Numbered from the stretch's first letter, positions 3,041-20,131 are shown. The stretch is DNA of 64,000 nt from Candidatus Krumholzibacteriia bacterium (GCA_963836185.1 CAWIIQ010000001.1:896001-960000), one strand, 5' to 3'. A program made the numbers and translations. The notes: generated by a model from the letters alone, not told the origin.

Positions 3041-4507
<1,467 letters not shown>

Positions 4508-4535
4508 TATCGATAAAAGTGCACCGGGGGCACCA

Positions 4536-5237
4536 TTGAACGCGCCACTTCAGTCAGACAGATATTTCGAGATGCTCGAGACAGCGGCGAGGCACAGAGG
4601 GATCGACCTTTTCGGCACCGCTCTGATAGACAAAGAGCAGAGACTCCGGTTCCATGAATCGATCGTCGAGATCGCGAAATCTCTTCCATACGCGGTCTCG
4701 ATGGGGATGAGGCTCTCATACCCGGTGCTGCAGACTGTTCTGACCGCTCCCACATGGACATACAATTACCATTACAGACAGATCAACATCGCCCTGGACC
4801 AGACGGCGCTGTTTATCGCCGGGGAGATCCAGAGGGCGGGATTCTCGGCCCTTCCGATTCCCGCCTCGCAGATACTGGACTGGGAAAAACTGAGGGCCCA
4901 TCTCTCGCACCGGGAGATCGCCGGGCTGGCGGGCCTGGGCTGGATGGGGCGCAACAACCTGCTTGTCACCCCGCGTTTCGGCTCTCAGGTGAGGCTTGTA
5001 ACGATCCTTACCGACATGGAACTTCCGGCCCGGAGCGGGGATGATGCAGGTGGGGATTGCGGAACATGCCGGGCATGCGTTAAGATGTGTCCGGTCGAGG
5101 CGATCGATGACGATCCGGAAAATTTCAACCTCGACAGCTGCGCCGCCCAGTTGAGGCGCTTCTCGAAATCAGAGAAGATCAATACGATGATATGCGGCCT
5201 GTGCATCAAAGTCTGCCGCGGACGGAAAGACGGATAA
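4536..5237 (+). CDS. Epoxyqueuosine reductase-like / reductive dehalogenase-like 4Fe-4S protein
   Basis: LSHR..A.LAGLGWMGRNNLL..P.FGS.VRL, CGTCRACVKMCP, CGLCIKVC. Confidence 0.75.
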   Translation: MNAPLQSDRYFEMLETAARHRGIDLFGTALIDKEQRLRFHESIVEIAKSLPYAVSMGMRLSYPVLQTVLTAPTWTYNYHYRQINIALDQTALFIAGEIQRAGFSALPIPASQILDWEKLRAHLSHREIAGLAGLGWMGRNNLLVTPRFGSQVRLVTILTDMELPARSGDDAGGDCGTCRACVKMCPVEAIDDDPENFNLDSCAAQLRRFSKSEKINTMICGLCIKVCRGRKDG

Positions 5238-6142
5238 TGGCAAAGACGCTCGAGAGGATAAACCAGGCGGTGTGGGAGCTCAAAGAGCAGGTACGCCTCA
5301 ATCCTGAGATATACGATTACAGGAAGGACATGCTCGACTTCTGGACCGACAGCAGGATCTTCACCGAGAGGCGCGAAGGGGTGCCGGAGCCGCAGAGAAG
5401 TTTCCTGATGATGCAGAAAAAGGAGTCGGTGGGCGTCCTTCTCATCCATGGCGCGGGAGGTTCTCCAGAGGAGATGCGCCCGATGGCCGAGTATCTTTTC
5501 AGGCAGGGATTCACCGTGCTGGGCATAAGGCTTCCCCTCGACCCGAACTACTCTGACACAGGATTCGTGGAGTATACCAGGGCCATCTTCAGCAAGAGCG
5601 GAGGGAAGCGGGGCAACGGCCGCGGAGTCAACGGAAACGGATCCTGGAGCGCATGCCTGGCGCAGGCGGAAGTCGCTCTCGATACTCTTCTTGCCTACTC
5701 TCCCGATTCGTACGTGGCGGGATTCAGCTTCGGCGGGACGTTAGCGCTGAATCTCATGCAGAAGTTTCCCGTCAAGGGGACGATCCTCTTGTCTCCGGGT
5801 CTCTTTCCGATGAGCGGGACTCGTTTCGCCATGTTCTGGACCGCCCGGCGGTTCATGCCGGGGCTGACGAAGAAGGCCATGCCGGTCCGCTGCATGATGC
5901 TCGATATGATCGAGAGGACCCGTTCGAACATCGGGTCGGGGCCTATCGATAACCCGATCCTCGTGATACAGGCTGCCGACGATCCGGTCATCTCCGCCAG
6001 GGGATACCAGTTCCTTCAGAAGAGGTCGTCGAGTCCGAGGTCGAAGTTCATCCTTCTTTCAGGTGGAGGCCACGTCATAATCGGAGGCGAAGGCGCCGCT
6101 AAGGTCTTCGGCTATTGCGGAGATTTTATCAAGGGCATCTAG
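5237..6142 (+). CDS. Alpha/beta hydrolase (carboxylesterase-like) with N-terminal extension
   Basis: LLIHG, GFSFGG nucleophile elbow, DDPVI and GHV; start overlaps the upstream stop (TAATG). Confidence 0.8.
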   Translation: MAKTLERINQAVWELKEQVRLNPEIYDYRKDMLDFWTDSRIFTERREGVPEPQRSFLMMQKKESVGVLLIHGAGGSPEEMRPMAEYLFRQGFTVLGIRLPLDPNYSDTGFVEYTRAIFSKSGGKRGNGRGVNGNGSWSACLAQAEVALDTLLAYSPDSYVAGFSFGGTLALNLMQKFPVKGTILLSPGLFPMSGTRFAMFWTARRFMPGLTKKAMPVRCMMLDMIERTRSNIGSGPIDNPILVIQAADDPVISARGYQFLQKRSSSPRSKFILLSGGGHVIIGGEGAAKVFGYCGDFIKGI

Positions 6143-6918
6143 CGGATATCGGCGGCGATCGGATCGAAAGAGAAAGATGGATCGGATTTTTTCAACTCCA
6201 TGGCAGCTGACCTGAGCTTTTTCCTCTCCTCATGCCCTCCCGATCTGCGGTATGCGTTCCATGCGTCGAGAAAGCCGTCGTAAAGGGCCGCGACCTCATT
6301 TTTCCTGTCCTCATCCATAACGTTTCGCTCGAGATGGAACATCTCGCCATCACTGATACGCGGGATCATGTTGAGGCAGGATGACCTCATCGATGAGATG
6401 ATACCTACATATTGCTCGAATCCGCGGGAGAGCTTTTCCATCACATCGCCGATCGCTGTCGGCCGTCTGAATGTCTCTGCCGCCGAGGCCCAGGCGAGCC
6501 TGTAGTATGCAGCCCCCCGGCCGATCCACACCTCCCTTGTCCGGGCCATGTGTGAGGCTGACCCCGGCCTGCGTCCCTCCGGATTATCGAAGACTCCAAG
6601 CCTGAGAAGCAGATCGTCGGCGTTGGCCCGGTAGATAGTGAACCGCTTGCGCGGGTCCATCTCCCGGCTCATGGTCTCGAATAGGGGGATGTCGTATCTG
6701 ACTATCGCCGCGGATGTCGAGTCTGCACGGCGGCCGTAGATATTTGATGTGAGAAGCCCGGCGAGGTAGACATTGACGTCCTCATCGAAGAATTCATCGT
6801 TTGAGGGGAAATCGCTCTCTTTCCTGCACTCAAGCAGGTTGTCGATCATGTAGAAATAGGCGGGAGAAGGACTTGTTCCTCCGCTTCCTACCGGCCTCCA
6901 GGCTGTTGAAGACTCCAT
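6139..6918 (-). CDS. Hypothetical protein
   Basis: Long ORF; GGAGAGG RBS before ATG 6918; sigma54-like promoter upstream; no recognised domain. Confidence 0.75.
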   Translation of the reverse strand: MESSTAWRPVGSGGTSPSPAYFYMIDNLLECRKESDFPSNDEFFDEDVNVYLAGLLTSNIYGRRADSTSAAIVRYDIPLFETMSREMDPRKRFTIYRANADDLLLRLGVFDNPEGRRPGSASHMARTREVWIGRGAAYYRLAWASAAETFRRPTAIGDVMEKLSRGFEQYVGIISSMRSSCLNMIPRISDGEMFHLERNVMDEDRKNEVAALYDGFLDAWNAYRRSGGHEERKKLRSAAMELKKSDPSFSFDPIAADIR

Positions 6919-6971
6919 GATGCCTCTCCGTTGCTTTTTTGACGTTGTCATCCGGCGCAGGAGGGCGAAAT

Positions 6972-6987
6972 TGCAAGGTCTATGCCA
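6972..6987 (-). promoter_or_regulatory. sigma54 (-24/-12) promoter
   Basis: Minus strand TGGCAT-AGACC-TTGCA matches TGGCAC-N5-TTGC spacing. Confidence 0.65.
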
Positions 6988-7111
6988 TGGAAAATTCAGA
7001 TAAATCTTATAAGAGGAAAAACTGTTTATTTTTCAGGGGAGACTCTGATATACTGCCTCGAAAGTGTGATTTCGGCTCTTTCCATCGTACCCATCCTTCC
7101 AGGGGGAGCAA

Positions 7112-7921
7112 ATGAGAGTAGGATTCCTTCAGCTCCGCGTCAAGTTTGGGGAAGTCAAAAAGAACGTAAAGAAAGCAGTTACCCTGCTTGGAAAGGTTGA
7201 GGACGCGACCATCGTCCTGCCCGAGCTGTTCAACACGGGTTACCTTTTCAAGAATCAGAGGGAACTGAACTCGCTGGCCGAACCTGTCCTGAAGGGTTAT
7301 ACGGTCTCCGAGATGAAGAAGGTCGCGAAAAAGCGCAATCTGCACCTGATATTCGGGATGGCCGAGAAAAAGGCCAGGTCCATCTACAATTCCGCCGTTT
7401 TCATCTCGCCTAAGGGCAAGGTCGAGGTCTATCAGAAGGTGCACCTGTTCGACCGTGAGAAGCTCTTCTTCACGCCGGGGAAGGCTCTCAAGACGGTCAG
7501 CACACCTGAGGCAAAGATCGGCGTAATGGTCTGTTTTGACTGGATCATGCCCGAGGTCGCCCGCTCGCTCGCTCTCAAGGGAGCCGGGATCATCGCTCAC
7601 CCGGCGAACCTCGTGCTGCCGTGGGGGCAGGAGGCGATGAAGCTCAGGTGTATCGAGAACAGGGTCTTCGGAATAACAGCCAACAGGATAGGCACCGAAA
7701 GGCGCGGCACGCTCAACCTTACATTCACGGGCGGGAGCCAGATAATCAGCCCCGCGGGTGAAGTGCTCGTCTTCGCTGGTGACCGAAGTGAATCGCTCAA
7801 GGTGATCGATATAGATGTCGCCGAGGCCGAAGATAAGCACGTTACTCCAGCGAACGATATATTCGCTGACAGGTTCCCCGGCCTTTATTCGCAGATCACG
7901 TCGAAAGCGAAGAGAAAATAG
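7112..7921 (+). CDS. Carbon-nitrogen hydrolase (nitrilase superfamily)
   Basis: LPELF, YQKVHLF, VCFDW: Glu-Lys-Cys triad. Confidence 0.9.
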   Translation: MRVGFLQLRVKFGEVKKNVKKAVTLLGKVEDATIVLPELFNTGYLFKNQRELNSLAEPVLKGYTVSEMKKVAKKRNLHLIFGMAEKKARSIYNSAVFISPKGKVEVYQKVHLFDREKLFFTPGKALKTVSTPEAKIGVMVCFDWIMPEVARSLALKGAGIIAHPANLVLPWGQEAMKLRCIENRVFGITANRIGTERRGTLNLTFTGGSQIISPAGEVLVFAGDRSESLKVIDIDVAEAEDKHVTPANDIFADRFPGLYSQITSKAKRK

Positions 7922-8052
7922 CCTGAGCGCTCTTCCGCGCTTTCTTGCAAATCGCACTCTAAACGGGCAAATCGGTCCTCTCCGTCCTTTGCACGCCCTT
8001 TCTATTCCCAGTTATTTCCAGTAAATACGCCGGATTTCCGTAATCCAAGCAT

Positions 8053-8067
8053 TGGCATAATCTTTGC
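8053..8067 (+). promoter_or_regulatory. sigma54 (-24/-12) promoter
   Basis: TGGCAT-AATCT-TTGC, about 95 nt upstream of the GTG at 8162. Confidence 0.65.
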
Positions 8068-8161
8068 GGATTCGGCGAGGGAACGGAAACGACTTTGAGA
8101 ACGACTGCGCTCAATGCGGGAGTCGGACAGCCAGTTTTTTATCTGTGCGAAGGAGATAGAA

Positions 8162-10135
8162 GTGGGAAAGCGAAAGCGAAACAGGAAACCCGTGCTTACC
8201 TCTCCGTGGAAGATCGGTACCCTGGTGGCGCTCATGCTCACCGTGACCAGTTTCGGTGTCGGTTATTACATGGTCAAAATGTACAACATCGAACTCTACT
8301 GGCTCAGCTCGGATGTCAGCAAATGGGTCGTCGACTCTTATGAGTTCTTCAGGGAGATCTATCCGGCAGCGGCCGGAGTAGTGCTTCTCGCACTCTTTAC
8401 CTACTTCGTCATCGCTTCCGCTGTGCGCAGATACAAGTACTACCTCAATTCCGGACAGGACTACCGGAAGATGATCTCTCTGGCTGACAGCGTAGACGAT
8501 CTGACCAATCCGGCACAGATAGCGAGGCTTTCCGAGTACCCGGAGCTTCAGGATGTCCTCAGAAACTACGGGGACCAGATCCGCGAGATCTCGGAGAGTA
8601 TGGAGGTCCGTGAGGAAGAGATAAGGTCGGTCGATCTCGAGGTCGAGATCGATTCGATACTGGGCGGCAGAGGGATCAACGAGACGCTTGTCGAAGGCAA
8701 GTGGTGGGCCCCGGTCGCGAAAAAGGTCGAAGCGTATGTCGAAGAGAACTCGGGCGGTACGGAAGAGCTGAAAAGACAGTCGGAGGCTGCCAGGCACGCC
8801 GCCGGCAGAGCTTCCCTTTCCTGCGGCAAGGTGATCGAGACCGCATCGGGCGCGAGCGAAGACATACTCGATATAGTCAGTTCAGTCGAGCTGCTCAATG
8901 CAGCCTCTGATGCGCTCGGTTCGGGCGGATCCGGCGATGGAGCCGATGCCGGTTCAGCCTCGGATGCGATCACGGCGATAGAGAATGCAGCCGCCACACT
9001 GGAAGAGAGGGGCGCGGCGATACACGAGCTCACCGAGGAAAGCAACGGCCTCGCTCTGAATATGGCGCTGATGGCTGCCAGGGGCGATGCAAACGAGAAG
9101 GATCTGGCGCAGCTGGCTGAGAAGGTCAGGTCATCGGCAGAGAGATTCGGCAAGCTCGGCAGAGAACTCGAGAGTCTGGCGAGGACCATTGCCGACAACA
9201 GCAGAAACGCAAAATCAACGGCAGGTGACACGTCTGTCGCCGCTGTTTCCCCCGATGCCTGTCGTGGTATCCAGGAGATATCTGAAAAGATCGAAACACG
9301 AAGCAGGGCCCTTCAGCAGAAGATGGCGGACCTTGGCAACGACATAGATGAGATAAACAGGGCACTTAATTCGGGACCGGAAGAGGCCCCGGAAGACCGT
9401 ATTCGCGCTTCGGACGGTTCGATCGTGAATTTCGGCTCCGATGCAGAAGATTCGGACGAGAAGCAGGTCGAGATCGATGAATCCGAACTCGTTATCGATC
9501 ATGGAAAGATCTGGGATGACTCAGAAGAGGTTTCCGCGGAGGCTGAAGAAGAGAGCGATGACAGCGGGGACCTGCTCATATCGGGATTCCAGGAGGCGAT
9601 GGGCGCCATGCAGACCGATTCCGGGCAGCCGGAGGAGGCCGACGTTACAGAGGATGAGCCTGAAGTAGAAGAGGTCCTGCAGTCAGAAGAAGAGATTTTC
9701 ATGCAGGCGGAAGAGGCTCCTGAAGAGGCCCCTGAAGAGATCCACGAAGAGATACATGAAGAGATAGTCGAAGAAACTGCCGAAGAGATCATCGAAGAAA
9801 CTGCCGAAGAGATCGTCGATGAAGTGATAGAAGAAATCGTGGAGGAAGCACAGGCTGAAGAGCCGGTCGATGTGGTGGATGAGTTGTTTGAGAGTGCCCC
9901 GGCAGTTGAAGAAAACTGGGATGACATGCAGGCGGAGGCGGCACCTGAAGCGGAGATCGCTCCGGTCGATGAAAAGCCTGTAGTCGAGCCCGAGATAGTC
10001 ATGGAGCCACAGGCTCATGAACCGGCGGCCGTCGCGAAGGATGAGGTCGTGCCTGAGGTCGATGAAGAGCCTGTATACGACCTGTTTGAACTCGGAGCAG
10101 TCGAGTACGTGAATGAGACAGAAGTAAATCTGTGA
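8162..10135 (+). CDS. Divergent methyl-accepting chemotaxis-like protein (two TM helices, signalling hairpin, long acidic tail)
   Basis: Two N-terminal hydrophobic helices; TEESNGLALNMALMAARG resembles the MCP tip (QTNLLALNAAIEAARAG); AAGGAG RBS before GTG 8162. Confidence 0.75.
   Translation: MGKRKRNRKPVLTSPWKIGTLVALMLTVTSFGVGYYMVKMYNIELYWLSSDVSKWVVDSYEFFREIYPAAAGVVLLALFTYFVIASAVRRYKYYLNSGQDYRKMISLADSVDDLTNPAQIARLSEYPELQDVLRNYGDQIREISESMEVREEEIRSVDLEVEIDSILGGRGINETLVEGKWWAPVAKKVEAYVEENSGGTEELKRQSEAARHAAGRASLSCGKVIETASGASEDILDIVSSVELLNAASDALGSGGSGDGADAGSASDAITAIENAAATLEERGAAIHELTEESNGLALNMALMAARGDANEKDLAQLAEKVRSSAERFGKLGRELESLARTIADNSRNAKSTAGDTSVAAVSPDACRGIQEISEKIETRSRALQQKMADLGNDIDEINRALNSGPEEAPEDRIRASDGSIVNFGSDAEDSDEKQVEIDESELVIDHGKIWDDSEEVSAEAEEESDDSGDLLISGFQEAMGAMQTDSGQPEEADVTEDEPEVEEVLQSEEEIFMQAEEAPEEAPEEIHEEIHEEIVEETAEEIIEETAEEIVDEVIEEIVEEAQAEEPVDVVDELFESAPAVEENWDDMQAEAAPEAEIAPVDEKPVVEPEIVMEPQAHEPAAVAKDEVVPEVDEEPVYDLFELGAVEYVNETEVNL
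9709..9850 (+). repeat. 12-nt degenerate tandem repeats encoding EEAP/EEIH/EEIV/EETA units
   Basis: gaagaggctcct gaagaggcccct gaagagatccac gaagagatacat gaagagatagtc... Confidence 0.8.
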
Positions 10136-10140
10136 GGTGA

Positions 10141-11814
10141 ATGTCCGTGGTGATGCTGAGCAGTGAAAACAGACAGCTATTTGGCGAACAGGTCAACGAC
10201 CACATCGCCAAGCTAAACGATCTGATGGGACTGGCCTGCGGACAGCCGCTGGACAGGACCCCCGTCGAGAAGGCCTGCTTTGCGGGAAGGCTTCTCGAGG
10301 GCAGCACGCGGATGCTAGGTCTCGATGAATGGTGCCGGGCACTGGAGTTGTTCAGGACCCTTCTGGAGAGATCTCTTGCCTCCGGAAGGCACTGGGACGA
10401 GCAGGTGTCACAGATCGTATCAGAAATACTGGAGACCGAAGAAGTCACGGTCTCCGAGTTAGCCGCCATGGAAGAGGGAGAGATCGACCTCACGCATTTC
10501 GGAGGGCTTCAGCAGGAAATAGAGCTGATCCTTTCGGAACCGTTCGAGGGTGTCGATGAGCCATCTTCAGAACCGGGCGTCCGGCTCGAGAAAGATCCCG
10601 GCGATGAGGAAGAGATCCTTTTCGAGATGCCCGCGCGGGAAAACAGCGCCGATGAACCAGCGCCGCGCAGGAATGAATTCGAATCCAGAGAATCGATGCC
10701 CGGCGAGAGAGACGGATTCGCGACGATAACGAGACTGCAGAATTCTCTGAAAAAGATCGACGTCAGGCTTGAGGAATGTCTCAGTGACGGGAACAGGGGG
10801 GACGCAGCGGTAAGGGACCTCGAGCTCGCTATAGGTGAGAGCGAGTTCTTCATGGCCATGCTCGGGAGTATGCTGAGCAGGCTTGGAGATAATCGCAAGA
10901 CATTCAGGTCAAAGGTATCCAGTTCGACCGTGATGGACGGCCTCAGGGATTTTATAGGTGTCCAGAGCAGGATGAGGAACTGGAAAACAGAGCTGAGGAC
11001 AAGGACCGATGACTTTTCACTCGAGAGGGAGGCCGCGACCGATCTCGCAGTGATCCTCGAAAACTGCGTGTTCGATATCTGCAGGATGAGTGAACGTGAC
11101 AGCAGAAGAGATGTAAGTGTGAAGATCGATGTGTCGAGCGAAGGCTCGTATCTGACCGCAAAGGTGTTCGATGACGCGAGTAACTATCTCAGTGATTCAG
11201 AGATAGACAGGGACGACGCCATGGCGTTCTACCATGGCCTGCTTCAGGCCAGGGGGCTTCTCAGGAAATGGGGAGCGCTGCTGTGGGTAGAGCCGTGTGA
11301 AGGAAGCGAGGACCGCTTCAGGTTCACCTTCCCCCGCACATCTGTGATCACCGACTATCATCTGATAGATTCGGCCGGCATAACAGTTGCTGTTCCGAAA
11401 CACGGAGTAGATGGCGTCATAGATCTGTCACACGCACGTATTGACAGCGACCAGGGAGGCAGGTCCGTCATGTACGGCGGCTCGCGTATCCCTGTCTGCA
11501 GGATAGACGAACTTGCGGCCGATGAGCTTGATGTCGGTTCCGAGGGCGACCACGTAGTGGTACTCGGACTGGCGGAAAAGAGGATCGGCATCCTGTCCGA
11601 CGGACCCGGCCGGAAGGTCGAGGGCCTTATCGAACAGGTAACGGAGAACGGCTGGGCGTCACTGTCCAGGCGTCTTCTCCACATCGGGGAACGGGAATTC
11701 CCTGTACTGGATTTCCAGCTTGTGCTCGATCGATATGGCTGGATCCTGGGTCTTGATGATGAGGCTGGGGAGCCCGGATCATGGGTGGATGAGGTTGCGG
11801 AAGTAAATCAGTAG
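10141..11814 (+). CDS. Degenerate CheA-like protein (Hpt-like, HATPase-like, CheW-like domains)
   Basis: AGRLLEGSTRMLGL aligns with the Hpt motif aaHTLKGsa.mlGl; degenerate N and G boxes; C-terminal CheW-like region. Confidence 0.7.
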   Translation: MSVVMLSSENRQLFGEQVNDHIAKLNDLMGLACGQPLDRTPVEKACFAGRLLEGSTRMLGLDEWCRALELFRTLLERSLASGRHWDEQVSQIVSEILETEEVTVSELAAMEEGEIDLTHFGGLQQEIELILSEPFEGVDEPSSEPGVRLEKDPGDEEEILFEMPARENSADEPAPRRNEFESRESMPGERDGFATITRLQNSLKKIDVRLEECLSDGNRGDAAVRDLELAIGESEFFMAMLGSMLSRLGDNRKTFRSKVSSSTVMDGLRDFIGVQSRMRNWKTELRTRTDDFSLEREAATDLAVILENCVFDICRMSERDSRRDVSVKIDVSSEGSYLTAKVFDDASNYLSDSEIDRDDAMAFYHGLLQARGLLRKWGALLWVEPCEGSEDRFRFTFPRTSVITDYHLIDSAGITVAVPKHGVDGVIDLSHARIDSDQGGRSVMYGGSRIPVCRIDELAADELDVGSEGDHVVVLGLAEKRIGILSDGPGRKVEGLIEQVTENGWASLSRRLLHIGEREFPVLDFQLVLDRYGWILGLDDEAGEPGSWVDEVAEVNQ

Positions 11815-11910
11815 ACGGTTTCGCGTGCCCGGACGCGTGCAAGTATAGAATGAAACGGTTCCGGCGTTCTCTGCCGCTGGTTCCAGTTCACCAAGCGTAG
11901 AGAGGTTGTC

Positions 11911-12153
11911 ATGGTTAAACAGCACCACAGGGACTACGGCAGCATCATAATCGGCGGCAACGACGACGCCACCGAAGTCATGACATCCGTCGAGGCGGCG
12001 GAGTATCTCAAGATGCACGTCAAGACAGTATGCCGTCTCGCGAAGGAAAAAAAGATTCCCGCGAAGAAGGTTGGAAGCGAATGGCGCTTCCTGAGGAGCG
12101 TTCTGGACAGATGGCTCGCTCAGGAAGAAGAGGTGGTATTAACCGCGGATTAA
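11911..12153 (+). CDS. Small HTH_17 (excisionase-like) DNA-binding protein
   Basis: VMTSVEAAEYLKMH..TV.RLA....IPA.KVG.EWRF. Confidence 0.85.
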   Translation: MVKQHHRDYGSIIIGGNDDATEVMTSVEAAEYLKMHVKTVCRLAKEKKIPAKKVGSEWRFLRSVLDRWLAQEEEVVLTAD

Positions 12154-12174
12154 CATCAGGGCGGGAGCGGCTAG

Positions 12175-14028
12175 ATGACAAGGACCAGATTCGAAAGACT
12201 CGAGATCGGAGGAGCCGACACGGCTGGATTCCAGATCTCGGGTAAGCTCGGATTCCACGAAAACGAGAAGATCGGACAACTGACCGAGGAATGCCTCAAG
12301 AGGGAGTTCAAGCAGGTCGTATTCGACTTTTCCGAGCTCACATCTCTTGGAGGCGGCGTGGCCAGGATTCTCCGGGGATTCGTCAAGGATCTCGCGGAGA
12401 CCGGCGGCAAGGTCACGTTTGTCGTGACCAGCAGTGTTGTGCTCGATTTTCTGCAGGATGCCGATACGAAGATCCACATCTGTTCCACGATGGAGGAAGC
12501 CATTCCGGGAGGCAAGGTATCTGTAGCGAAGGAAGAGATAAAAGAGGAGACCGAGGTCACAGCCGATCCTGCTGAAGACGTAAAAGCTGAAGAGGAAGCC
12601 GTCGGGGACAAGGAGGATGCCGGCAAGCAGGAGGAGGTTTCTCCCGAGAGCGAGCCGGCCGGGCAGGACGGTGTCATTCTGATGGCTTATGATGACGGCG
12701 GCCAGCCGGAGGCGGACAATGCCAAAGATCGACCGGCCGTCGATGAACCGGCCGCGGCGGAGGCAGAGGAAAACTCTCAGCAGGAAGTCGCCCAGGAGGA
12801 TACGGGGCAAGAGGAAGAGATCATCTCCGAAATATTCGATTCAGGGGGACGGAGCGTCGATCCGCCCGAGTGGATCGATGATCCGGTATCTCCATTCAGT
12901 CTCGCCGATGAGATAGAGACAGAGGACGCCAAGGATCTCAACAAGAAACTCAAGAGGCGCATTCTCGAGCTCAAGACCCTGTTCTCCATCAGCGCCGATT
13001 TCAACTCGATCAGGGAGCGGAAGAAACTTCTGGATATATTCCTGCTGACCTCGATAGCCCAGGGCGGAGTCGAATCCGCTGTTTTCTACGAAAAGAAAGA
13101 CGGCGTATTCCAGCCCAGGATAGCCAAGGGTATAGATGAGGAGAAACTTTCCCCTATCGAACTGAGCGATAACGAAAGAGAGCGGATCAACTGGGGACGG
13201 GACGTGTTCGAAATCGCCAGCATGGAATTCAACGACAAGACGAAGAAGAACTTGAGCGATGCGGGGCTGGAGTATGTATGTCCCTTCAACCAGGGCGAGG
13301 ATATGGCCGGACTGATATTCCTCGGCAAGAGGCTGGCCGGCAGGGGGATGCAGAAGGAAGATTTCGAGTTCATGAAGATCCTCGTGAACCTCGCGAAGGG
13401 GGCTTACAGCAATGCCCTTATGTTCGAAAGGGAGAATGAGAGGACACTCGGGATAGTCAAGACACTGATATCACTCATAGAAGAAAACACGATGCTCAAA
13501 GGTACATCCGAGATCGTGTCCCGCTACGTGGGTATGCTCGCGAAGAATATGGATTACCCGGAAGAGAACTTCAAGGATCTGATATATGGCACCGTTCTCA
13601 GGGACATGGGCATGGTAAAGGTCAGCGAACTTATTGTACGAAGCCCGAGAGAACTGTCCAAGGATGAATGGCAGATCATAAAGAGGCATCCCGAGGATGG
13701 GGCGGAGATGCTCAGACGCATGAAATTCAACAGTCATGTTGTGGATGTCGTGTTGAGCCATCACGAACGGTTCAACGGTGAAGGCTATCCGCGCGGCTTG
13801 AGGGGAAAGGATATTCCCCTCGGAGCGAGGATAATCTCCGTTGTCGAGAGTTACGCGGCTATGATCAACGAAAGGCCCAACCGTCCACCCCTGTCAGCCA
13901 GGGAAGCGCTTGATACGCTTAAGGAAAATTACGGTCTTCGATACGATCGTGAGGTCGTCAACCAGTTCGCCGCCATCATGGAGAAGGAAATAGCAAAATC
14001 GGTCCAGCCCGTAGGCGCCGTTTCCTGA
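12175..14028 (+). CDS. STAS + acidic linker + GAF-like + degenerate HD-GYP protein
   Basis: N-terminal STAS-like fold (FDFSELTSLGGG); LRDMG in place of LHDIG; HHERFNGEGYP retained. Confidence 0.85.
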   Translation: MTRTRFERLEIGGADTAGFQISGKLGFHENEKIGQLTEECLKREFKQVVFDFSELTSLGGGVARILRGFVKDLAETGGKVTFVVTSSVVLDFLQDADTKIHICSTMEEAIPGGKVSVAKEEIKEETEVTADPAEDVKAEEEAVGDKEDAGKQEEVSPESEPAGQDGVILMAYDDGGQPEADNAKDRPAVDEPAAAEAEENSQQEVAQEDTGQEEEIISEIFDSGGRSVDPPEWIDDPVSPFSLADEIETEDAKDLNKKLKRRILELKTLFSISADFNSIRERKKLLDIFLLTSIAQGGVESAVFYEKKDGVFQPRIAKGIDEEKLSPIELSDNERERINWGRDVFEIASMEFNDKTKKNLSDAGLEYVCPFNQGEDMAGLIFLGKRLAGRGMQKEDFEFMKILVNLAKGAYSNALMFERENERTLGIVKTLISLIEENTMLKGTSEIVSRYVGMLAKNMDYPEENFKDLIYGTVLRDMGMVKVSELIVRSPRELSKDEWQIIKRHPEDGAEMLRRMKFNSHVVDVVLSHHERFNGEGYPRGLRGKDIPLGARIISVVESYAAMINERPNRPPLSAREALDTLKENYGLRYDREVVNQFAAIMEKEIAKSVQPVGAVS

Positions 14029-14041
14029 GAGAGGCATTACG

Positions 14042-15592
14042 TTGAGCGGTAATATTCTCGTAGTCGACGACGATCCCAACGTGGTCGAAATAATCACCGA
14101 ATCGCTGAGGAGCAGAGGGTACAATACCGAGTATGCTATGGACGGCGAGTCGGCTCTGCGAAAATACGACGAATTCCTTCCAGATCTTGTAGTGCTCGAT
14201 GTGGTCCTTCCGAGAAAAGACGGGTTCGCCGTCTGTGATGAGATAAGGACACGTGACGTAAACCGCGACGTGCCCGTTATAATGATCTCCGGGAACGCCA
14301 TCCCTGACGACATGCTCGAAGGATTCAAGTCAGGGGCGCAGGACTATATAAAGAAACCTTTCTCCGTCAAGGAGATGATAGCGAAGGTCGATAACTTTCT
14401 TTCGCAGGCGAACAATCGAAGGGATCTGCGCGAGCAGAACGAGCATCTCGAGGATGAGATACAGAAGAACGTGGATGATCTTCAGCGTGTCAACAAGGAG
14501 CTGAAGAAAAAGGTCCTCGACCTGCGTTCTATCTTCGATCTGAGCCAGGACCTCAACAGGCTGCGTGATCCCGAAGAGTTGACGAATGTCTTCTTTCTCA
14601 CGATCGCCGGGCAGCTCGGAATCGGTTCGGTCTGTCTCTTCTTTGCGCCGAATGACGCTCAGAGCCATCTCTCTTACGCGGGGGGCAGGGGTATAAGGGA
14701 TTCCGTCCTCAGAGCCGTGAGGCTTTCCAGGGAGACGGGGATGAGCCATCTGCTCTTCACCGGCCAGGGGAAACTCGACCTGGGAAACGATGATGTGCCG
14801 GAAGAGGCGAAACGCGAGATCAAGTTCATGCGGGACCTGGGTTTTCTCTACTGTTATCCACTGATCGTAAAGTCTTCCCTGATAGGAATAGTGTTTCTGG
14901 GCAGCAAGGTCAGCGGGCTGGAATATTCAGCCAACGACTGGGATGTCTTCAAATCGATATGCAGTTCTTTCGCGACGGGTCTCGAGAACGCGAGACTCTA
15001 CTCCGAACTTCAGTCCACCTATCTCTCGACGATCAAGGTCCTCGTCTCGACGATCGAGGCAAAGGACTCGTATACGAGGGGTCACACGGAGAGAGTGGCG
15101 ATGTTCGCCAGGCTCATAGCCGAGGAGATGGGACTGGACAAGAAGGAGCTGGAGACGGTCAGCTTCGGCGCGGCCCTCCACGATATCGGAAAACTCGGTG
15201 TATACGAGGATATTCTGAATAAGCCGGGAGAGCTTACAGATGGTGAATGGGAAATCGTAAGGAGCCATCCGGAGGTCGGGGCAAACATCATCAAGAATAT
15301 GAAATTTCTCGAAGCTGCCTGTGATCTCGTAAGGCATCACCACGAACGTCTCGATGGCCGGGGATACCCCGACGGCCTGAAGGGCGAGCAGATATCGCTC
15401 GGGGCGAGGATCGTGGCTGTTGCCGACAGTTTCGACGCGATGACGAGCGACAGGCCTTACCGTATCGCTTTCGGATACAGGGACGCGCTCGAGCAGCTCA
15501 AGCTTCAGACCGACAAGTTCGACGTGGACGTCATCGAGCACCTTATCAGGCTGGTCGAAAGAGGCATGATCAGGGAACCGCGAAGAGACTAG
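14042..15592 (+). CDS. Response regulator: REC + GAF-like + HD-GYP phosphodiesterase
   Basis: VVDDD, LDVVLP and KP receiver motifs; YTRGHTERV, ALHDIGK, HHERLDGRGYP, VADSFDAM. Confidence 0.92.
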   Translation: MSGNILVVDDDPNVVEIITESLRSRGYNTEYAMDGESALRKYDEFLPDLVVLDVVLPRKDGFAVCDEIRTRDVNRDVPVIMISGNAIPDDMLEGFKSGAQDYIKKPFSVKEMIAKVDNFLSQANNRRDLREQNEHLEDEIQKNVDDLQRVNKELKKKVLDLRSIFDLSQDLNRLRDPEELTNVFFLTIAGQLGIGSVCLFFAPNDAQSHLSYAGGRGIRDSVLRAVRLSRETGMSHLLFTGQGKLDLGNDDVPEEAKREIKFMRDLGFLYCYPLIVKSSLIGIVFLGSKVSGLEYSANDWDVFKSICSSFATGLENARLYSELQSTYLSTIKVLVSTIEAKDSYTRGHTERVAMFARLIAEEMGLDKKELETVSFGAALHDIGKLGVYEDILNKPGELTDGEWEIVRSHPEVGANIIKNMKFLEAACDLVRHHHERLDGRGYPDGLKGEQISLGARIVAVADSFDAMTSDRPYRIAFGYRDALEQLKLQTDKFDVDVIEHLIRLVERGMIREPRRD

Positions 15593-15864
15593 ACACCGTC
15601 AAATCAGTTTCCATCACAGCAAATACACTCAGGCAGCGCGGTTACCCGTATGCCCCGTAAACAGCGGCTGCGCCTTTTACCTGTCCGGCAGGATCACGGT
15701 CATGCTGAAGTACGGCGTAACTGACATGTATGTCTGTGATTAGGTGGTGCAGTGCCGTCGGGCACCATCCTTGCCATCATACCCTGCCGGAACGGTCCTG
15801 AAGGAGAAGGGAGCGGAGGTCAGGGCGTGAAGACGTGTGTGGTGAGGCTTCCGCTCCCGTTCCG

Positions 15865-16641
15865 TCACGCGGCGGGAACGGTCTCCGCGGATTTTATTCC
15901 CAGTATGGCGACGAGCTCATTTCGCAGTGCGTTGAGGTCGAGTTTTCGCTTGAGCTTGCCCTCGCGTGCCAGCGAGATCGAGCCCGTCTCCTCGCTGACG
16001 ATGATCACGATAGCATCGGTCTCCTCGGAGAGTCCCAGGCCGGCCCTGTGCCTAGTTCCCAGCGCGCGGCCGATGCGGGGATTCTGGGAAAGGGGCAGTA
16101 TGCAGCCAGCCGCGATGATCCTGTCCTTTTCGACGATCACCGCGCCGTCGTGCAGGGGGCTGGGGGGTGTGAATATCGTCACGAGCAGTTCGCTCGAGAC
16201 CTTGGCGTCGAGTCTTGTGCCTGTCTCGATGTAGTTCTTCAGGCCTACATCTCTCTCAACGACGATTATAGCTCCGAGGCCTTTCTGCACGAGAAGCTGA
16301 CAGGCTTTCACCGTCTCCGATACGGTTCCGGTAGATTCCACCTTCAGGAACATGCCTATGATCCTGTTCTGTCCGAGCTGCGTCAGAGCTTTTCTGAGTT
16401 CGGGCTGGAACAGGATCACGAACGCTATCACCCATACGGTCTTCAGGCTGCTGAGAATCCAGTTGAGAGCGTTGAGATTGACCCACTGGGCGATGAACGA
16501 TACGATGATCAGCAGAAAGAGGCCGATGAACATCTGGATGGCCCTTGTGCCCTTGATGAGCATGAACAGCCTGTAGAAGAGAAAGGCGACGATCAGTATG
16601 TCGAGCATATCGATCGTGAGATTGAAATGAAAAGAGCTCAA
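15865..16641 (-). CDS. cdaA: Diadenylate cyclase CdaA
   Basis: Three N-terminal TM segments; LHDGA, GTRHRA and VSEETG motifs. Confidence 0.95.
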   Translation of the reverse strand: MSSFHFNLTIDMLDILIVAFLFYRLFMLIKGTRAIQMFIGLFLLIIVSFIAQWVNLNALNWILSSLKTVWVIAFVILFQPELRKALTQLGQNRIIGMFLKVESTGTVSETVKACQLLVQKGLGAIIVVERDVGLKNYIETGTRLDAKVSSELLVTIFTPPSPLHDGAVIVEKDRIIAAGCILPLSQNPRIGRALGTRHRAGLGLSEETDAIVIIVSEETGSISLAREGKLKRKLDLNALRNELVAILGIKSAETVPAA

Positions 16642-17855
16642 AAGGAGCCGCCTTTCCCGTTGATAGCCTGCCAGACCTTAATATAATCAGCCGTTTCACT
16701 GACATCATGGACGCGCAGTATCTGGATACCCGCATCGAGGCAGATGCCCGCCGCGGCGAGTCCGCCCGGCAATCTTTCCCCTGGTCTGTCCCGTCCCGTG
16801 ATCGCCCCGATGAACGATTTGCGCGAATGCCCGACAAGAACAGGGTACCCGAGCGTATGGAGATCTCCGACGCGGCCGATGATCTCCAGGTTATCCTCCA
16901 ATCTTTTGCCGAATCCTATTCCCGGGTCAACGATTATTTTATCGCGGGCGACGCCTCCTTCGATGAGCCGGACAGCGGCTGACTCGAGCCAGGTGGATAT
17001 TTCGTCCGGGGCATCATCATAATACGGGTCGTCCTGCATCTTCTCCGGGCTCCCTTTCATATGCATTATGACGGCTGCGGCGCCTGTGTCCGCGGCCAGT
17101 CCGGTCATCCCGGGATCATGCGTGAAGCCGCTGATATCGTTGATGATCGATGCTCCGAGGCGGATAGCTTCCCGCGCTACCATGGAGTGGCGGGTATCGA
17201 TCGATATTACCGCGCCGGCGATGCCTGATATCTTCTCGAGAACCGGGGCGACGCGGTCGAGTTCCTCGGCAGGGTCGAGTTCCCCGGCCCCCGGCCTGCT
17301 CGATTCTCCGCCGATGTCGATTATCGACGCGCCCTCCTCGACCATCCGCGCACCCCTGTCCGCCGCCGCCGATGGGTCGGTAAAGAGGCCTCCATCGCTG
17401 AAGCTGTCAGGCGTCACATTCAGGATCCCCATTATCAGTGGAGCGCCTGTCAGGTCGAGCCGGCCCTGCGGAAGGCTGACGGCCTGCGGGGGAGAGGCTC
17501 TCAATCCCAGAAGCCTGACGATCTCAAGTCCTGCTTCGCCGAGGCCGAACGGCTGGCACGCCAGGTTACCCGCGAGTATCTCGAGCCTTTTAGCGTCAGA
17601 GATAAGGTAGGCGCATGATTCGCCGGGGCCGCCGCGGATGACTTCCCTGTGAACGGCAGCGTCTCCGCCCAACGACAGCAACTGCTGTTTTACGATATTA
17701 GCCGCCGCCGCGGAGAGGCCGCAGATCCGTATCACAACGGTCTCAGCTTTACGGGTCATGATATCAACACCGGCCGGATCTACACCTGCCCTGTGGAGGT
17801 GCCCGGCGAGCGTTGCCCTGCGGGTGGAAGAGATGAGGTGGAGCTTGTAACGCAT
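16638..17855 (-). CDS. folP: Dihydropteroate synthase with N-terminal extension
   Basis: MGILNVTPDSFSDGG, DIGGESSRPGA, DPGIGFGK, SRKS, RVHDV. Confidence 0.95.
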   Translation of the reverse strand: MRYKLHLISSTRRATLAGHLHRAGVDPAGVDIMTRKAETVVIRICGLSAAAANIVKQQLLSLGGDAAVHREVIRGGPGESCAYLISDAKRLEILAGNLACQPFGLGEAGLEIVRLLGLRASPPQAVSLPQGRLDLTGAPLIMGILNVTPDSFSDGGLFTDPSAAADRGARMVEEGASIIDIGGESSRPGAGELDPAEELDRVAPVLEKISGIAGAVISIDTRHSMVAREAIRLGASIINDISGFTHDPGMTGLAADTGAAAVIMHMKGSPEKMQDDPYYDDAPDEISTWLESAAVRLIEGGVARDKIIVDPGIGFGKRLEDNLEIIGRVGDLHTLGYPVLVGHSRKSFIGAITGRDRPGERLPGGLAAAGICLDAGIQILRVHDVSETADYIKVWQAINGKGGSF

Positions 17856-17889
17856 CTGCCGCTGCCGCGCGCCCCTCCTTCCTGAGCGA

Positions 17890-19983
17890 TCAGGCTTTCG
17901 TGTCCGGATCCTCGTCCTTCGGATCGATATCCGAGAAAAGATCGGCCGGACCCGGTTCGTCCTTTATCGTATCTTCGGGTTCATCGATAGAGGGCGGTTC
18001 TTGGTCTGCCTCGGGCTCAGCGGGCTTAACGGGCGGCTCTGGCTTTTTCTGCTCCGGTTTCCTTTTCACGGGAGGGAGTGTGCCGCCGCTGAGGAGTATC
18101 TTTACATCCTCGCCGTCAAGGGTCTCGCGCTCGAGAAGAGCCTCGGCAACCGAGTGAAGCTCTTTTTCGTGCTCGGTCAGGATGCTGCGGGCCTTCTCGT
18201 AGCATTCCGATATGATCCTCTTTACCTCGAAGTCGATCTCCTGGGCCGTCTGCTCACTGTAGTCCCTGTGCGTGGATATCTCACGTCCGAGGAAGATCTG
18301 TTCTTCCCTCTTGCCGAACGCTATCGGGCCCAGCTTCTCGCTCATACCCCACTGCGTGACCATCTTCCGAGCGATGCCCGAGGAGGTCTTGATGTCTCCA
18401 TAGGCGCCGCTGCCGATCCTGCCGATGACGAGTTCCTCGGCGACCCTGCCGCCGAGAGCCATGGTGATCATGTCGAGGAGGTATTCCTTCGACTGGTAGA
18501 AATAATTGTCGTCGTCGGTGAGGAACGAGGTAAGGCCGCCCGCCCTTCCCCTTGATATGATCGTCACCTTGTGAAGAGGATCGGCGTCCTTGAGGTACGA
18601 ACCGACTACGGCGTGTCCGGCCTCGTGGTAGGCGGTCATCCGCCTTGTGTCTTCCTTGAATACGCGGCTTTTTCTCTCCGGTCCGAGGAATACCTTGTCT
18701 TTCGATTCCTCGAACTCGTCCATGTAGACCTTGTCCTTGTCCCGCCTCGCCGCCAGCAGCGCCGCCTCGTTGACGAGGTTGGCGAGGTCGGCTCCCGACA
18801 TCCCCGGTGTGCCCCTGGCGAGTATCTCGAGATCGACATCTTCCGCCATCGGTATATTTCTCGTATGGACCTTCAGGATGCCGAGCCTTCCCCTGACGTC
18901 CGGCATATCGACTATCACGCGACGGTCGAATCGCCCGGGCCTCAGCAGCGCCGGGTCGAGGACGTCGGGCCTGTTCGTCGCGGCAAGCAGGATGACTCCC
19001 TCGTTTGTCACGAATCCATCCATTTCGACCAGCAGCTGGTTGAGAGTCTGCTCGCGCTCGTCATGTCCTCCGCCCAGTCCCGCGCCCCTGTGGCGCCCGA
19101 CCGCGTCGAGCTCATCTATAAAGAGGATGCACGGTGCGTGCTTCTTGCCCTTGTCGAAGAGATCGCGTACACGGCTTGCGCCTACACCGACGAACATCTC
19201 GACGAAGTCCGATCCGCTCATGCTGAAGAACGGGACCCCCGCCTCGCCCGCGACGGCCCTGGCGAGCAGTGTCTTGCCCGTTCCGGGAGGGCCGAGCAGG
19301 ATGACGCCCTTCGGTATCCTGCCGCCGAGCTTCTGGAACTTCTTGGGATCCTTGAGGAACTCGATCACTTCCTGGAGTTCCTCCTTGGCTTCATCAGCGC
19401 CTGCGACGTCGTCAAAGGTGACGCGCGGCATATTGTTGTCCATCATCTTCGCCTTGCTCTTGCCGAACGAGAAGGCCTTGTTGCCGCCGCCCTGCATGTT
19501 GCGCATCAGTATCACCCAGAGGACAAGAAGCGCGATAAGGGGGAGAGCTGTGGCAAGCGCCTTCACCCATACGCTGCTTCCCGGATACTCCGCCTCGATC
19601 TGGGTATCAGGATTGCCTGCCCAGATGCGTTCCGCCAGCTGGGGGTCCTCGGCGGGCAGAATCGTCTTGAAATTCGTTATCGTTGTGCCATCACCGCCGG
19701 TCGGGATCGTTATAGGGGTTACGAGGATTCCGCGTACCTCGATCCCCTTGATCTTTACGCTGGCGATGTTGCCGTTATCCACTTCAGCGATGAACTGGCT
19801 GTAATCTATGGGCCATTCCCTCTCCTTGCTCGAGTTGAAGAGGAGGAAGGCGAGGAAGAACAGGATGATGACCATGACCCAGAGAGCCATCGATCTCGAC
19901 GGTTTCTGCTGTCCTGGTGACCCGCCCGGCGGGATCCATTTCTTCCTGGGATTCTGGTCACGGTTCTTGTCGTCACCGTTCAT
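17890..19983 (-). CDS. ftsH: ATP-dependent zinc metalloprotease FtsH
   Basis: Two TM segments, [28 protein letters not shown]. Confidence 0.97.
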
Positions 19984-20131
19984 ATTTTTGTTACTCCGTA
20001 GATTAATGGCTGTAACGGCCGGAAAGGGCAGAGCGTAATCTCTCCCTTCATGCGGCCGGTAAATCAGTCGCATCCAAGTTTCTGAAATCAAGATAAGCGA
20101 AAACCGGTTCTTTGTCCAACCTAATAACCCG

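Follow-up and report, generated by a model that had tools for sequence, protein, structure and literature searches.

A sigma54-preceded operon of Candidatus Krumholzibacteriota with a predicted kinase-dead CheA-like protein and a predicted cyclic di-GMP phosphodiesterase

We analysed a window of 64,000 nt from a Candidatus Krumholzibacteriia bacterium (GCA_963836185.1 CAWIIQ010000001.1:896001-960000), in which positions 8053 to 15592 hold a sigma54-type site followed by an operon of five genes, hereafter the cassette. Judged from its sequence, the operon is a descendant of a chemosensory pathway with a CheA-receiver hybrid, from which the residues for ATP-dependent His phosphorylation have been lost. 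The cassette is real and conserved, and it is undescribed in the literature searched, a search that covered few subscription papers and no supplements and yielded no account of the operon. We put at about even the chance that it forms a membrane-anchored, phosphorylation-independent binding scaffold, controlling a predicted cyclic di-GMP (c-di-GMP) phosphodiesterase within a pilus-linked sigma54 regulon. All five open reading frames (ORFs) noted by a first-pass annotation are present and open in the ORF list of the window. The features are as follows.

8053 to 8068, plus strand: sigma54-type -24/-12 site, TGGCAT-N5-TTGC, here TGGCATAATCTTTGCG, read from the sequence, 5' of the operon
8114 to 10135, plus strand: chemoreceptor-derived membrane protein, ORF of 673 aa, likely start GTG at 8162
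10073 to 10108, plus strand: C-terminal motif VYDLFELGAVEY of the DLxxLGAV type, aa 654-665 of the receptor-like protein
10141 to 11814, plus strand: CheA-like protein, 557 aa, predicted to be kinase-dead (model, Foldseek, VIA-align, hhalign), with P1 at aa 5-135, a disordered linker, the P3 hairpin at 194-248, P4 at 255-400 and P5 at 401-536, and no P2
10288 to 10290, plus strand: Arg50, codon AGG, at the phospho-His position of P1
11074 to 11076, plus strand: Asp312 at the N-box Asn position of P4, aligned to the Asn of intact CheAs
11911 to 12153, plus strand: stand-alone helix-turn-helix (HTH) protein, 80 aa, HTH_17, excisionase-like (Pfam E 5e-14)
12175 to 14028, plus strand: STAS, acidic linker, coiled coil, GAF and degenerate HD-GYP domain (Pfam STAS and HD_5)
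14042 to 15592, plus strand: receiver, coiled coil, GAF and HD-GYP domain with complete metal ligands (Pfam receiver and HD_5)

The AlphaFold2 model of the CheA-like protein, built with 101 sequences (predicted local distance difference test score 83.7), comprised a five-helix N-terminal bundle, a linker, a hairpin, a HATPase fold and a CheW fold. CheA structures stood at the top of the Foldseek search (E 2e-14), and VIA-align matched residues 4-135 to CheA P1 (1i5n; Z 15.1, root-mean-square deviation (rmsd) 2.8, 127 aligned), residues 255-400 to CheA P4 (Z 14.2) and residues 402-539 to the CheW fold (Z 15.4). A family profile of 35 sequences was colinear over its full length with an intact Hpt-P3-P4-P5-receiver CheA (hhalign probability 99.9). 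By these four methods the Hpt, dimerisation, HATPase_c and CheW domains are present in order, which bears out the CheA ancestry and fold proposed earlier; as modelled, the protein has the core CheA domains in order, without P2. In a search of 1.84 billion representatives the family was compact; after a drop came CheA-receiver hybrids that are intact, along with other receiver proteins. Its nearest intact relatives were Hpt-P3-P4-P5-receiver proteins (the tree included just 5 intact CheAs), and distant orthologues bear a degenerate C-terminal receiver that the window copy has lost. Close homologues carry the label Ca. Krumholzibacteriota. In Pfam, both the receptor-like protein (MCPsignal, E 0.003) and the CheA-like protein (CheW, E 0.012) scored below threshold, and neither had a match in NCBIfam; surveys can miss such a dead CheA because it falls below the cut-offs of both databases.

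Some members of the family deserve separate mention. P0198 and P0203 are divergent, share 40% identity, lack a receiver and carry Lys where the His would be; the only close match of either was the other, and their loci were absent from two metagenome scans. The first Atlas cluster of the family (15 records) was labelled mostly Ca. Eiseniibacteriota, either a labelling artefact or real. The gene is split by a frameshift at L059:9679-10737 and 8606-9682 and at L147:874-2520, which, in low-completeness or fragmented assemblies, could be an assembly error.

Residues were counted over 104 orthologous ORFs differing in sequence (fragments among them, and perhaps single genes called from different starts) and again over 74 family representatives, one intact CheA being left out. 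The first-pass annotation had placed Arg at the phospho-acceptor position, and a profile alignment with an intact CheA-receiver hybrid indeed sets Arg50, encoded by AGG, on the phospho-His. Position 50 was R67 K12 N4 S2 G1 T1 D1 H1 among the 89 non-gap rows of the orthologues and R48 K16 T3 S3 N2 G1 H1 in the 74 representatives, and the loss of His is conserved among the orthologues (His in 1/89 and 1/74). We weighed whether the orthologue with His, L134, is a retained ancestor and decided against it, as it is nested among Arg relatives in a quick tree and has Asp at its N-box; its codon is CAC where relatives have CGN or AGA, one base from an Arg codon. His21 was likewise rejected as an alternative acceptor: it aligns with an ordinary helix-A His of intact CheAs and is Gln in 24/89. 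The Gly at H+4 of the Arg-bearing Hpt was retained in 82/90; a role of this Gly in receiver docking is described in the portion of PMC6341664 available.

The erosion of the ATP-binding boxes described earlier stood in substance and needed correction in detail. At the N-box the Asn is lost, but the pairing of ILENCVFD with LLRNAIDH was off by four, the true position being Asp312 and not Asn308; Asp312 filled 95/95 non-gap rows and 81/83 in a second set. At the G1 box the second Gly is gone and the first remains in 51/93, but the first Asp, Asp344, is kept in 90/95 orthologues, and because of this the nucleotide pocket of P4 is, as its residues read, remodelled rather than simply eroded. The glycines of G2 are missing, and profile alignment shows an ATP lid about 30 residues shorter than in intact CheA; the conserved loss of the lid glycines, confirmed in both the orthologue and the profile alignments, is accompanied by a new conserved lid motif, DS-x-ID-x-x-D-x-x-A-x-Y-x-GL. 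In the full-length copies of f4, one of nine families (f1 to f9) of Ca. Krumholzibacteriota, Arg takes the place of Asp344. On its residues the CheA-like protein cannot be a His kinase, and phosphotransfer from it to the output receiver would have neither donor His nor ATP site.

The ratio of nonsynonymous to synonymous rates (dN/dS) was estimated by the Nei-Gojobori method against four same-genus relatives; the estimates are rough, since dS was near 1. It was 0.10-0.13 for the whole CheA-like protein, 0.11-0.18 for P1, 0.03-0.09 for P3 and 0.02-0.05 for P4, the last resembling the intact HD-GYP domain (0.02-0.04). Selection rather than decay, as had been suggested, is thus confirmed, and from this purifying selection the CheA-like protein, as far as substitution patterns tell, still does something. 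That the operon is a decaying relic of a once-active pathway is hardly tenable: stepwise loss in f4, absence of the receptor in f7 and the faster evolution of the receptor hairpin (dN/dS about 0.2) would suit such a relic, but open frames, dN/dS far below 1, and replacement residues and a promoter invariant across seven families already largely refute it for this lineage.

The same data bear on a nucleotide-gated pseudokinase, in which P4 would bind ADP/ATP or a cyclic dinucleotide without transfer and switch the complex, or aid receiver dephosphorylation. The retention of Asp344, the invariant Asp312, the new lid motif and the position of P4 as the most constrained domain are consistent with it, as is EnvZ N347D, the same Asn to Asp change, kinase-negative/phosphatase-positive according to the title of a reference in PMC2688746. 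The missing second G1 Gly and G2 glycines and the short lid argue the other way, together with the change of Asp344 to Arg in the f4 full-length copies and the deletion of P4 in the eight loci described below. Phosphatase activity of EnvZ-type kinases requires the DHp His region, which the CheA-like protein lacks. We regard the pseudokinase as unlikely in itself; it is a sub-mechanism compatible with the scaffold reading, and the two can coexist.

Both HD-GYP proteins reported by the first-pass annotation are present, but only the second has an intact site. They share the coiled coil-GAF-HD-GYP arrangement and are 30% identical over 373 columns. In the pairwise alignment, H348/H380/K384/D462 of the intact paralogue become T444/R476/M480/E558 in the first protein, which has RD for HD in 84/84 motif-bearing orthologues and Glu for Asp in 83/83 motif-bearing rows, of 111, and has also lost the KPG motif; as its motifs read, it is catalytically dead. 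Its STAS domain, for which the best solved matches were anti-anti-sigma factors (E 0.002-0.004), has an invariant Gly60 at the position of Ser58 when aligned to SpoIIAA. Four dead catalytic or phospho-sites (Hpt, P4, STAS and HD-GYP) stand in the cassette. The second protein has the complete metal ligands, loop Glu339 and the GYP, KPG and RPYR motifs, with HD in 79/80. The second protein carries every one of the motifs given for active c-di-GMP phosphodiesterases in the portion of 10.1101/2021.11.05.467447 available, metal ligands, GYP, KPG and RxY[K/R] among them, and is a predicted active c-di-GMP phosphodiesterase.

The receptor-like protein probably starts at GTG 8162, which is preceded by AAGGAG, and not at the ORF start 8114. 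Two membrane helices are predicted, one of them strong by hydropathy, and a tiny outer loop separates them. They are followed by a helical region, a degenerate hairpin at about 279-372 and a tail of 219 aa that is disordered and acidic (38% Asp+Glu), and in which model confidence rises only at the terminal motif. No cytoplasmic element of the family is more conserved than this motif, (V/I)xDLxxLGAV; its D, L, G and A were invariant in 63 tails (selected for the motif), and it ends the upstream gene in most loci, with one to three copies in relatives and 2-3 in f4 and f8. A family profile built without canonical rows had just one other match in the genome, the canonical methyl-accepting chemotaxis protein (MCP; E 8e-13), and on sequence grounds the receptor-like protein is homologous to the MCP signalling hairpin. 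The first helix of the tip retains Ala314, Ala318 and often Arg323; in the GRGFAVV half, G, F and the first V were found in 0/56-57 orthologues, and in f5 the hairpin tip is lost altogether. Structural comparison of the hairpin with 1qu7 (Z 7.9, rmsd 1.7 over 98) and 3g67 (Z 7.8, rmsd 1.9 over 100) scored no higher than unrelated helical bundles, and a fold search with the model returned generic helical bundles alone on top. A methylation-site consensus had one match here, was present in 1/47 orthologues and had only one match in the canonical control.

The gene order with the HD-GYP genes was kept in 8/9 families, in line with the conservation proposed earlier. The CheA-like profile matched at E<1e-60 in 99/101 sampled genomes of f1, f2, f3, f5, f6, f8 and f9, and part of an eighth family, f4 (three genera), has full-length copies that diverge more; the order is constant between hydrolase/nitrilase genes and cdaA-folP-ftsH. 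As had been noted, cheR, cheB, cheY and a stand-alone cheW are absent from the cluster: the ORF list and a Pfam scan of 9 proteins gave none within 4000-20000, and the orthologous loci, when compared with the genome's own che proteins, gave no match to its CheR or CheB. A canonical cluster, named from motifs as cheR-mcp-cheW-cheD-cheB-cheA-cheC-cheY, lies elsewhere in the genome (C1:681155-688539). Its wider region (G000 C1:681155-691597) ends with two TPR-type genes, in a genome where FliG had no match, and this cluster likely controls something other than flagella.

The cassette was present in 23/23 genomes of f6 and CheW in 1/23, with none in a one-contig, 96% complete genome; in f6 and most f9 genomes the cassette occurs without any CheW or CheA match, and in f1-f3 CheW is encoded elsewhere in nearly all genomes. 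The array architecture inferred by the first-pass annotation found no support in this comparison, given also the loss of the GRGFAVV half, the loss of the hairpin tip in f5 and the deletion of P3-P5 in eight loci that retain the receptor. A true array, with receptor trimers of dimers and P5 rings forming a lattice that holds phosphodiesterases, we consider very unlikely on the same grounds: the CheW fold of P5, the residues kept in the first helix of the receptor tip and the CheW of f1-f3 would favour it, and the scarcity of CheW in f6, the lost tip motif and hairpin, and the deletion of P5 in the eight f4 loci tell against it. The canonical che cluster of this genome and the CheW of f1-f3 also allow the CheA-like protein to be thought of as an inhibitor or split partner of that cluster, in the manner of CheA3/CheA4 of Cereibacter sphaeroides. 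This we judge highly improbable, as His and ATP site are both gone, so that neither half can be supplied, and the cassette, in f6 and most f9 genomes, is unaccompanied by a CheW or CheA match.

The cassette was lost in a nested manner. Among 76 loci with full flanks (6 more were skipped, their HTH pattern having been missed), 57 were complete, 4 of these without detectable terminal motif. In 8 loci the receptor is followed by an Arg-bearing Hpt fused directly to a degenerate receiver and by the dead HD-GYP protein, with P3-P5 deleted and no intact HD-GYP (in one of the 8, the Hpt alone is in frame); 2 loci have the receptor and the dead HD-GYP protein and no CheA-like gene, and 6 have kept none of these parts. 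A further 20 f4 and f7 loci, picked via the HTH gene, show a reductive series. The intact HD-GYP never occurred without P4 (57/57), the dead HD-GYP domain vanishes where the receptor is lost, and a search of five reduced genomes with this query turned up no full-length orthologue of the intact HD-GYP protein elsewhere. These patterns, and an order fixed across eight families, speak against separate modules that are merely co-transcribed, in which the receptor/CheA-like pair would be unrelated to its neighbours (serving, e.g., as a polar landmark or in pilus localisation) and the HD-GYP pair would just lie in the same sigma54 operon. Such modules would explain why three loci lose the intact HD-GYP alone and why, in distant loci, a second sigma54-type site just 5' of the HTH gene (50/108 upstream regions at >=8/10) splits the cassette into two transcription units; on balance we find them quite unlikely. 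In L035, L038, L039, L055 and L161-L174 the second site lies about 130-190 nt before the HTH core; it is absent in the window's order.

The sigma54-type site itself is real, as first claimed: 37/47 orthologous upstream regions had >=9/10 consensus bases, against 0.4% of random 450-nt windows, and 41/47 loci had >=8/10, the misses being 2 mis-anchored loci and 4 of f4. The genome has rpoN, and the GG-N10-GC element is conserved upstream. Genome-wide we found 24 strict sigma54-type sites, including ones before pilB, pilM, an MglA-like gene, two GGDEF genes and the 270-aa gene described below (names assigned from sequence motifs, except PilT and GGDEF); the genome has three GGDEF matches and PilT. 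The receptor profile matched 90/121 genomes, all 90 with strong PilT, defined as E<=1e-130, a threshold set after seeing a gap in the scores, with PilM used as a check. In 49 f4 genomes, receptor and PilM were both present in 30, both missing in 15 and in disagreement in 4. The pilus link is suggestive only.

A binding scaffold tuning the one working enzyme is the simplest account of the fixed linkage, the four dead sites, the tethered motif and the nested loss. The receptor-like protein would be a membrane anchor, tethering its partner through the long acidic tail and the DLxxLGAV motif at the end of it. This partner is more probably the STAS-GAF-dead-HD-GYP protein than P4 or P5, because that protein and the receptor stay together also in loci with a reduced CheA-like gene or none. 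The dead and intact HD-GYP proteins may form a heterodimer, the dead subunit acting as adaptor or regulator, and the CheA-like protein would be an allosteric adaptor, whose Arg-bearing Hpt with its small H+4 Gly could dock on a receiver domain and whose conserved P4 would be a binding surface, with the STAS domain or a nucleotide as candidate ligands. Phosphorylation of the phosphodiesterase receiver, if any, would have to come from another kinase. The output would be a sink for c-di-GMP that acts locally, is expressed under sigma54 together with the genes for type IV pili, MglA and diguanylate cyclases, and possibly serves surface motility or attachment. In a more specific form, the cassette would be a phosphorylation-free descendant of a chemotaxis machine, in which the anchor with its tether, the dead CheA P4 as docking site or nucleotide switch for the Ser-less STAS, and the dead/live HD-GYP heterodimer relay a membrane signal to c-di-GMP turnover and to the behaviour of type IV pili by allostery alone; we offer this version tentatively, at somewhat less than even confidence. 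Of the earlier interpretation, CheA ancestry, residue loss, selection, gene order and the sigma54 site carry over into this reading, and the array does not.

Several observations weigh against the scaffold reading. Which part binds which is deduced from co-retention, and regulation of the phosphodiesterase by the CheA-like protein from gene linkage and nested loss; most of the nested losses were seen in a single family, and the 76 loci were not sampled at random. A full CheA-like gene without an intact HD-GYP occurs in three of these loci, one such genome having no full-length orthologue of the latter elsewhere when searched, and the terminal motif was undetected in four f5 and other loci. Retention of Asp344 in 90/95 means that nucleotide binding by P4 may persist. 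Asp53 of the phosphodiesterase receiver is kept in 29/33, so that ordinary phosphorylation probably still controls this enzyme. As to the pilus, the 15 f4 genomes (seven genera) without receptor and PilM form one clade (FliF tree, support 99; the FliG and FliF trees have one wrong-frame row each, g28 and g36, respectively), and the co-loss therefore counts as one event, not 15; in f7 the receptor is absent in 9/9 genomes, though 5 have strong PilT. A complex prediction with aa 1-540 of the CheA-like protein, STAS and, as the partner scored, the tail motif, leaving out GAF and HD-GYP, gave 0.00 and weighs neither way.

A divergent gene lies upstream of the cassette.

6139 to 6951, minus strand: gene of 270 aa, no known family, with its own sigma54-type site at 6972-6987

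This gene had no Pfam or NCBIfam match and adjoins the cassette in most loci; its membership of the cassette is uncertain. It is kept in three f7 loci of strong-PilT genomes and missing from seven inspected loci of weak-PilT genomes, and in the Atlas it fell in unnamed clusters only, with Omnitrophota among the labels. On the other side lies a gene at 15865-16641 (minus strand), cdaA-like by its motifs and thus a putative diadenylate cyclase gene, and nearly all loci have it in this convergent position; this neighbour is probably only part of a conserved ftsH-folP-cdaA block. The HTH gene was single copy at E<=1e-22 in 124/125 good-quality genomes of the phylum, of which it is a near-universal single-copy marker; it survives alone where the rest of the cassette is lost, and its synonymous divergence is unusually low (dS 0.15-0.37 vs about 1 for its neighbours). 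The genome also encodes a Myxococcus-like pilus cluster (G000 C1:1996926-2013342, minus strand), running from pilB-pilT-pilC-pilS-pilR-pilA to pilM-Q, in which pilB and pilM are each preceded by a sigma54-type site; the N-terminal repeat of its PilB lacks the Arg of the c-di-GMP-binding motif.

Chemosensory systems are defined by the chemistry of the CheA kinase, and here a whole CheA, dead at both ends as its residues read, is conserved across most of a phylum, with the former catalytic domain P4 as constrained as a working enzyme and one family lacking any active CheA. If the allosteric version of the scaffold is true, this would be a new kind of signalling system and not a damaged chemosensory one. 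The natural stepwise-reduced series (full, Hpt-receiver only, none) gives access to roles of chemoreceptor and CheA folds beyond phosphorylation, and lets one ask which partners are bound by Hpt domains without His, STAS domains without Ser and HD-GYP domains that are dead; the soluble parts are all amenable in vitro, though the organisms are uncultured.

SpoIIAA, a STAS protein, pairs with the HATPase-fold kinase SpoIIAB in partner switching. The cassette resembles this pair in having a STAS fold with a HATPase-fold domain encoded next door, and differs in the invariant Gly at the phospho-Ser position and in having no sigma factor or phosphatase in the cluster. Wsp of Pseudomonas and Frz of Myxococcus are examples of the ACF class. 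With these systems the cassette shares a receptor gene followed by a CheA without P2 (with a C-terminal receiver in its distant orthologues) and a receiver-bearing c-di-GMP enzyme downstream; unlike them, it lacks the phospho-His and the ATP-lid glycines, has no CheW, CheR or CheB in the cluster, and its output is a phosphodiesterase with a dead paralogue and not a cyclase. The class is defined in PMC10782961, whereas PMC10936416, in the portion available, deals with flagellar chemotaxis genes only.

Like RpfG-type receiver-HD-GYP proteins, the second HD-GYP protein carries the complete set of residues. HD-GYP proteins that are inactive and work through protein contacts are already known (10.1101/2021.11.05.467447, available portion), in the main text of which the terms STAS and chemotaxis are absent; the cassette, unlike RpfG-type proteins, has a fixed intact/dead paralogue pair, which is linked to genes of chemoreceptor origin and whose dead member bears a STAS domain at its N-terminus. 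The remaining parallels are drawn from the portion of PMC10782961 available. The CheA3/CheA4 pair of Cereibacter (Rhodobacter) sphaeroides likewise includes a CheA with a non-functional HATPase and His-less Hpt domains that keep the fold, but CheA3 keeps one phosphorylatable Hpt and an active operon partner, CheA4, whereas the sole Hpt of the cassette is His-less and, as f6 indicates, no active partner is needed. ChpA of Pseudomonas aeruginosa also combines an Hpt fold without His with a type IV pilus context, but its His-less Hpts are extra domains of an active kinase, whereas here the whole protein is, on its residues, kinase-dead. That source, a broad survey, counts the four core CheA domains as the smallest functional unit and assigns no settled role to Hpt domains without His; by its His position, ATP site and CheW, the cassette stands outside both the CheA kinases and the chemosensory systems from which it appears to descend.

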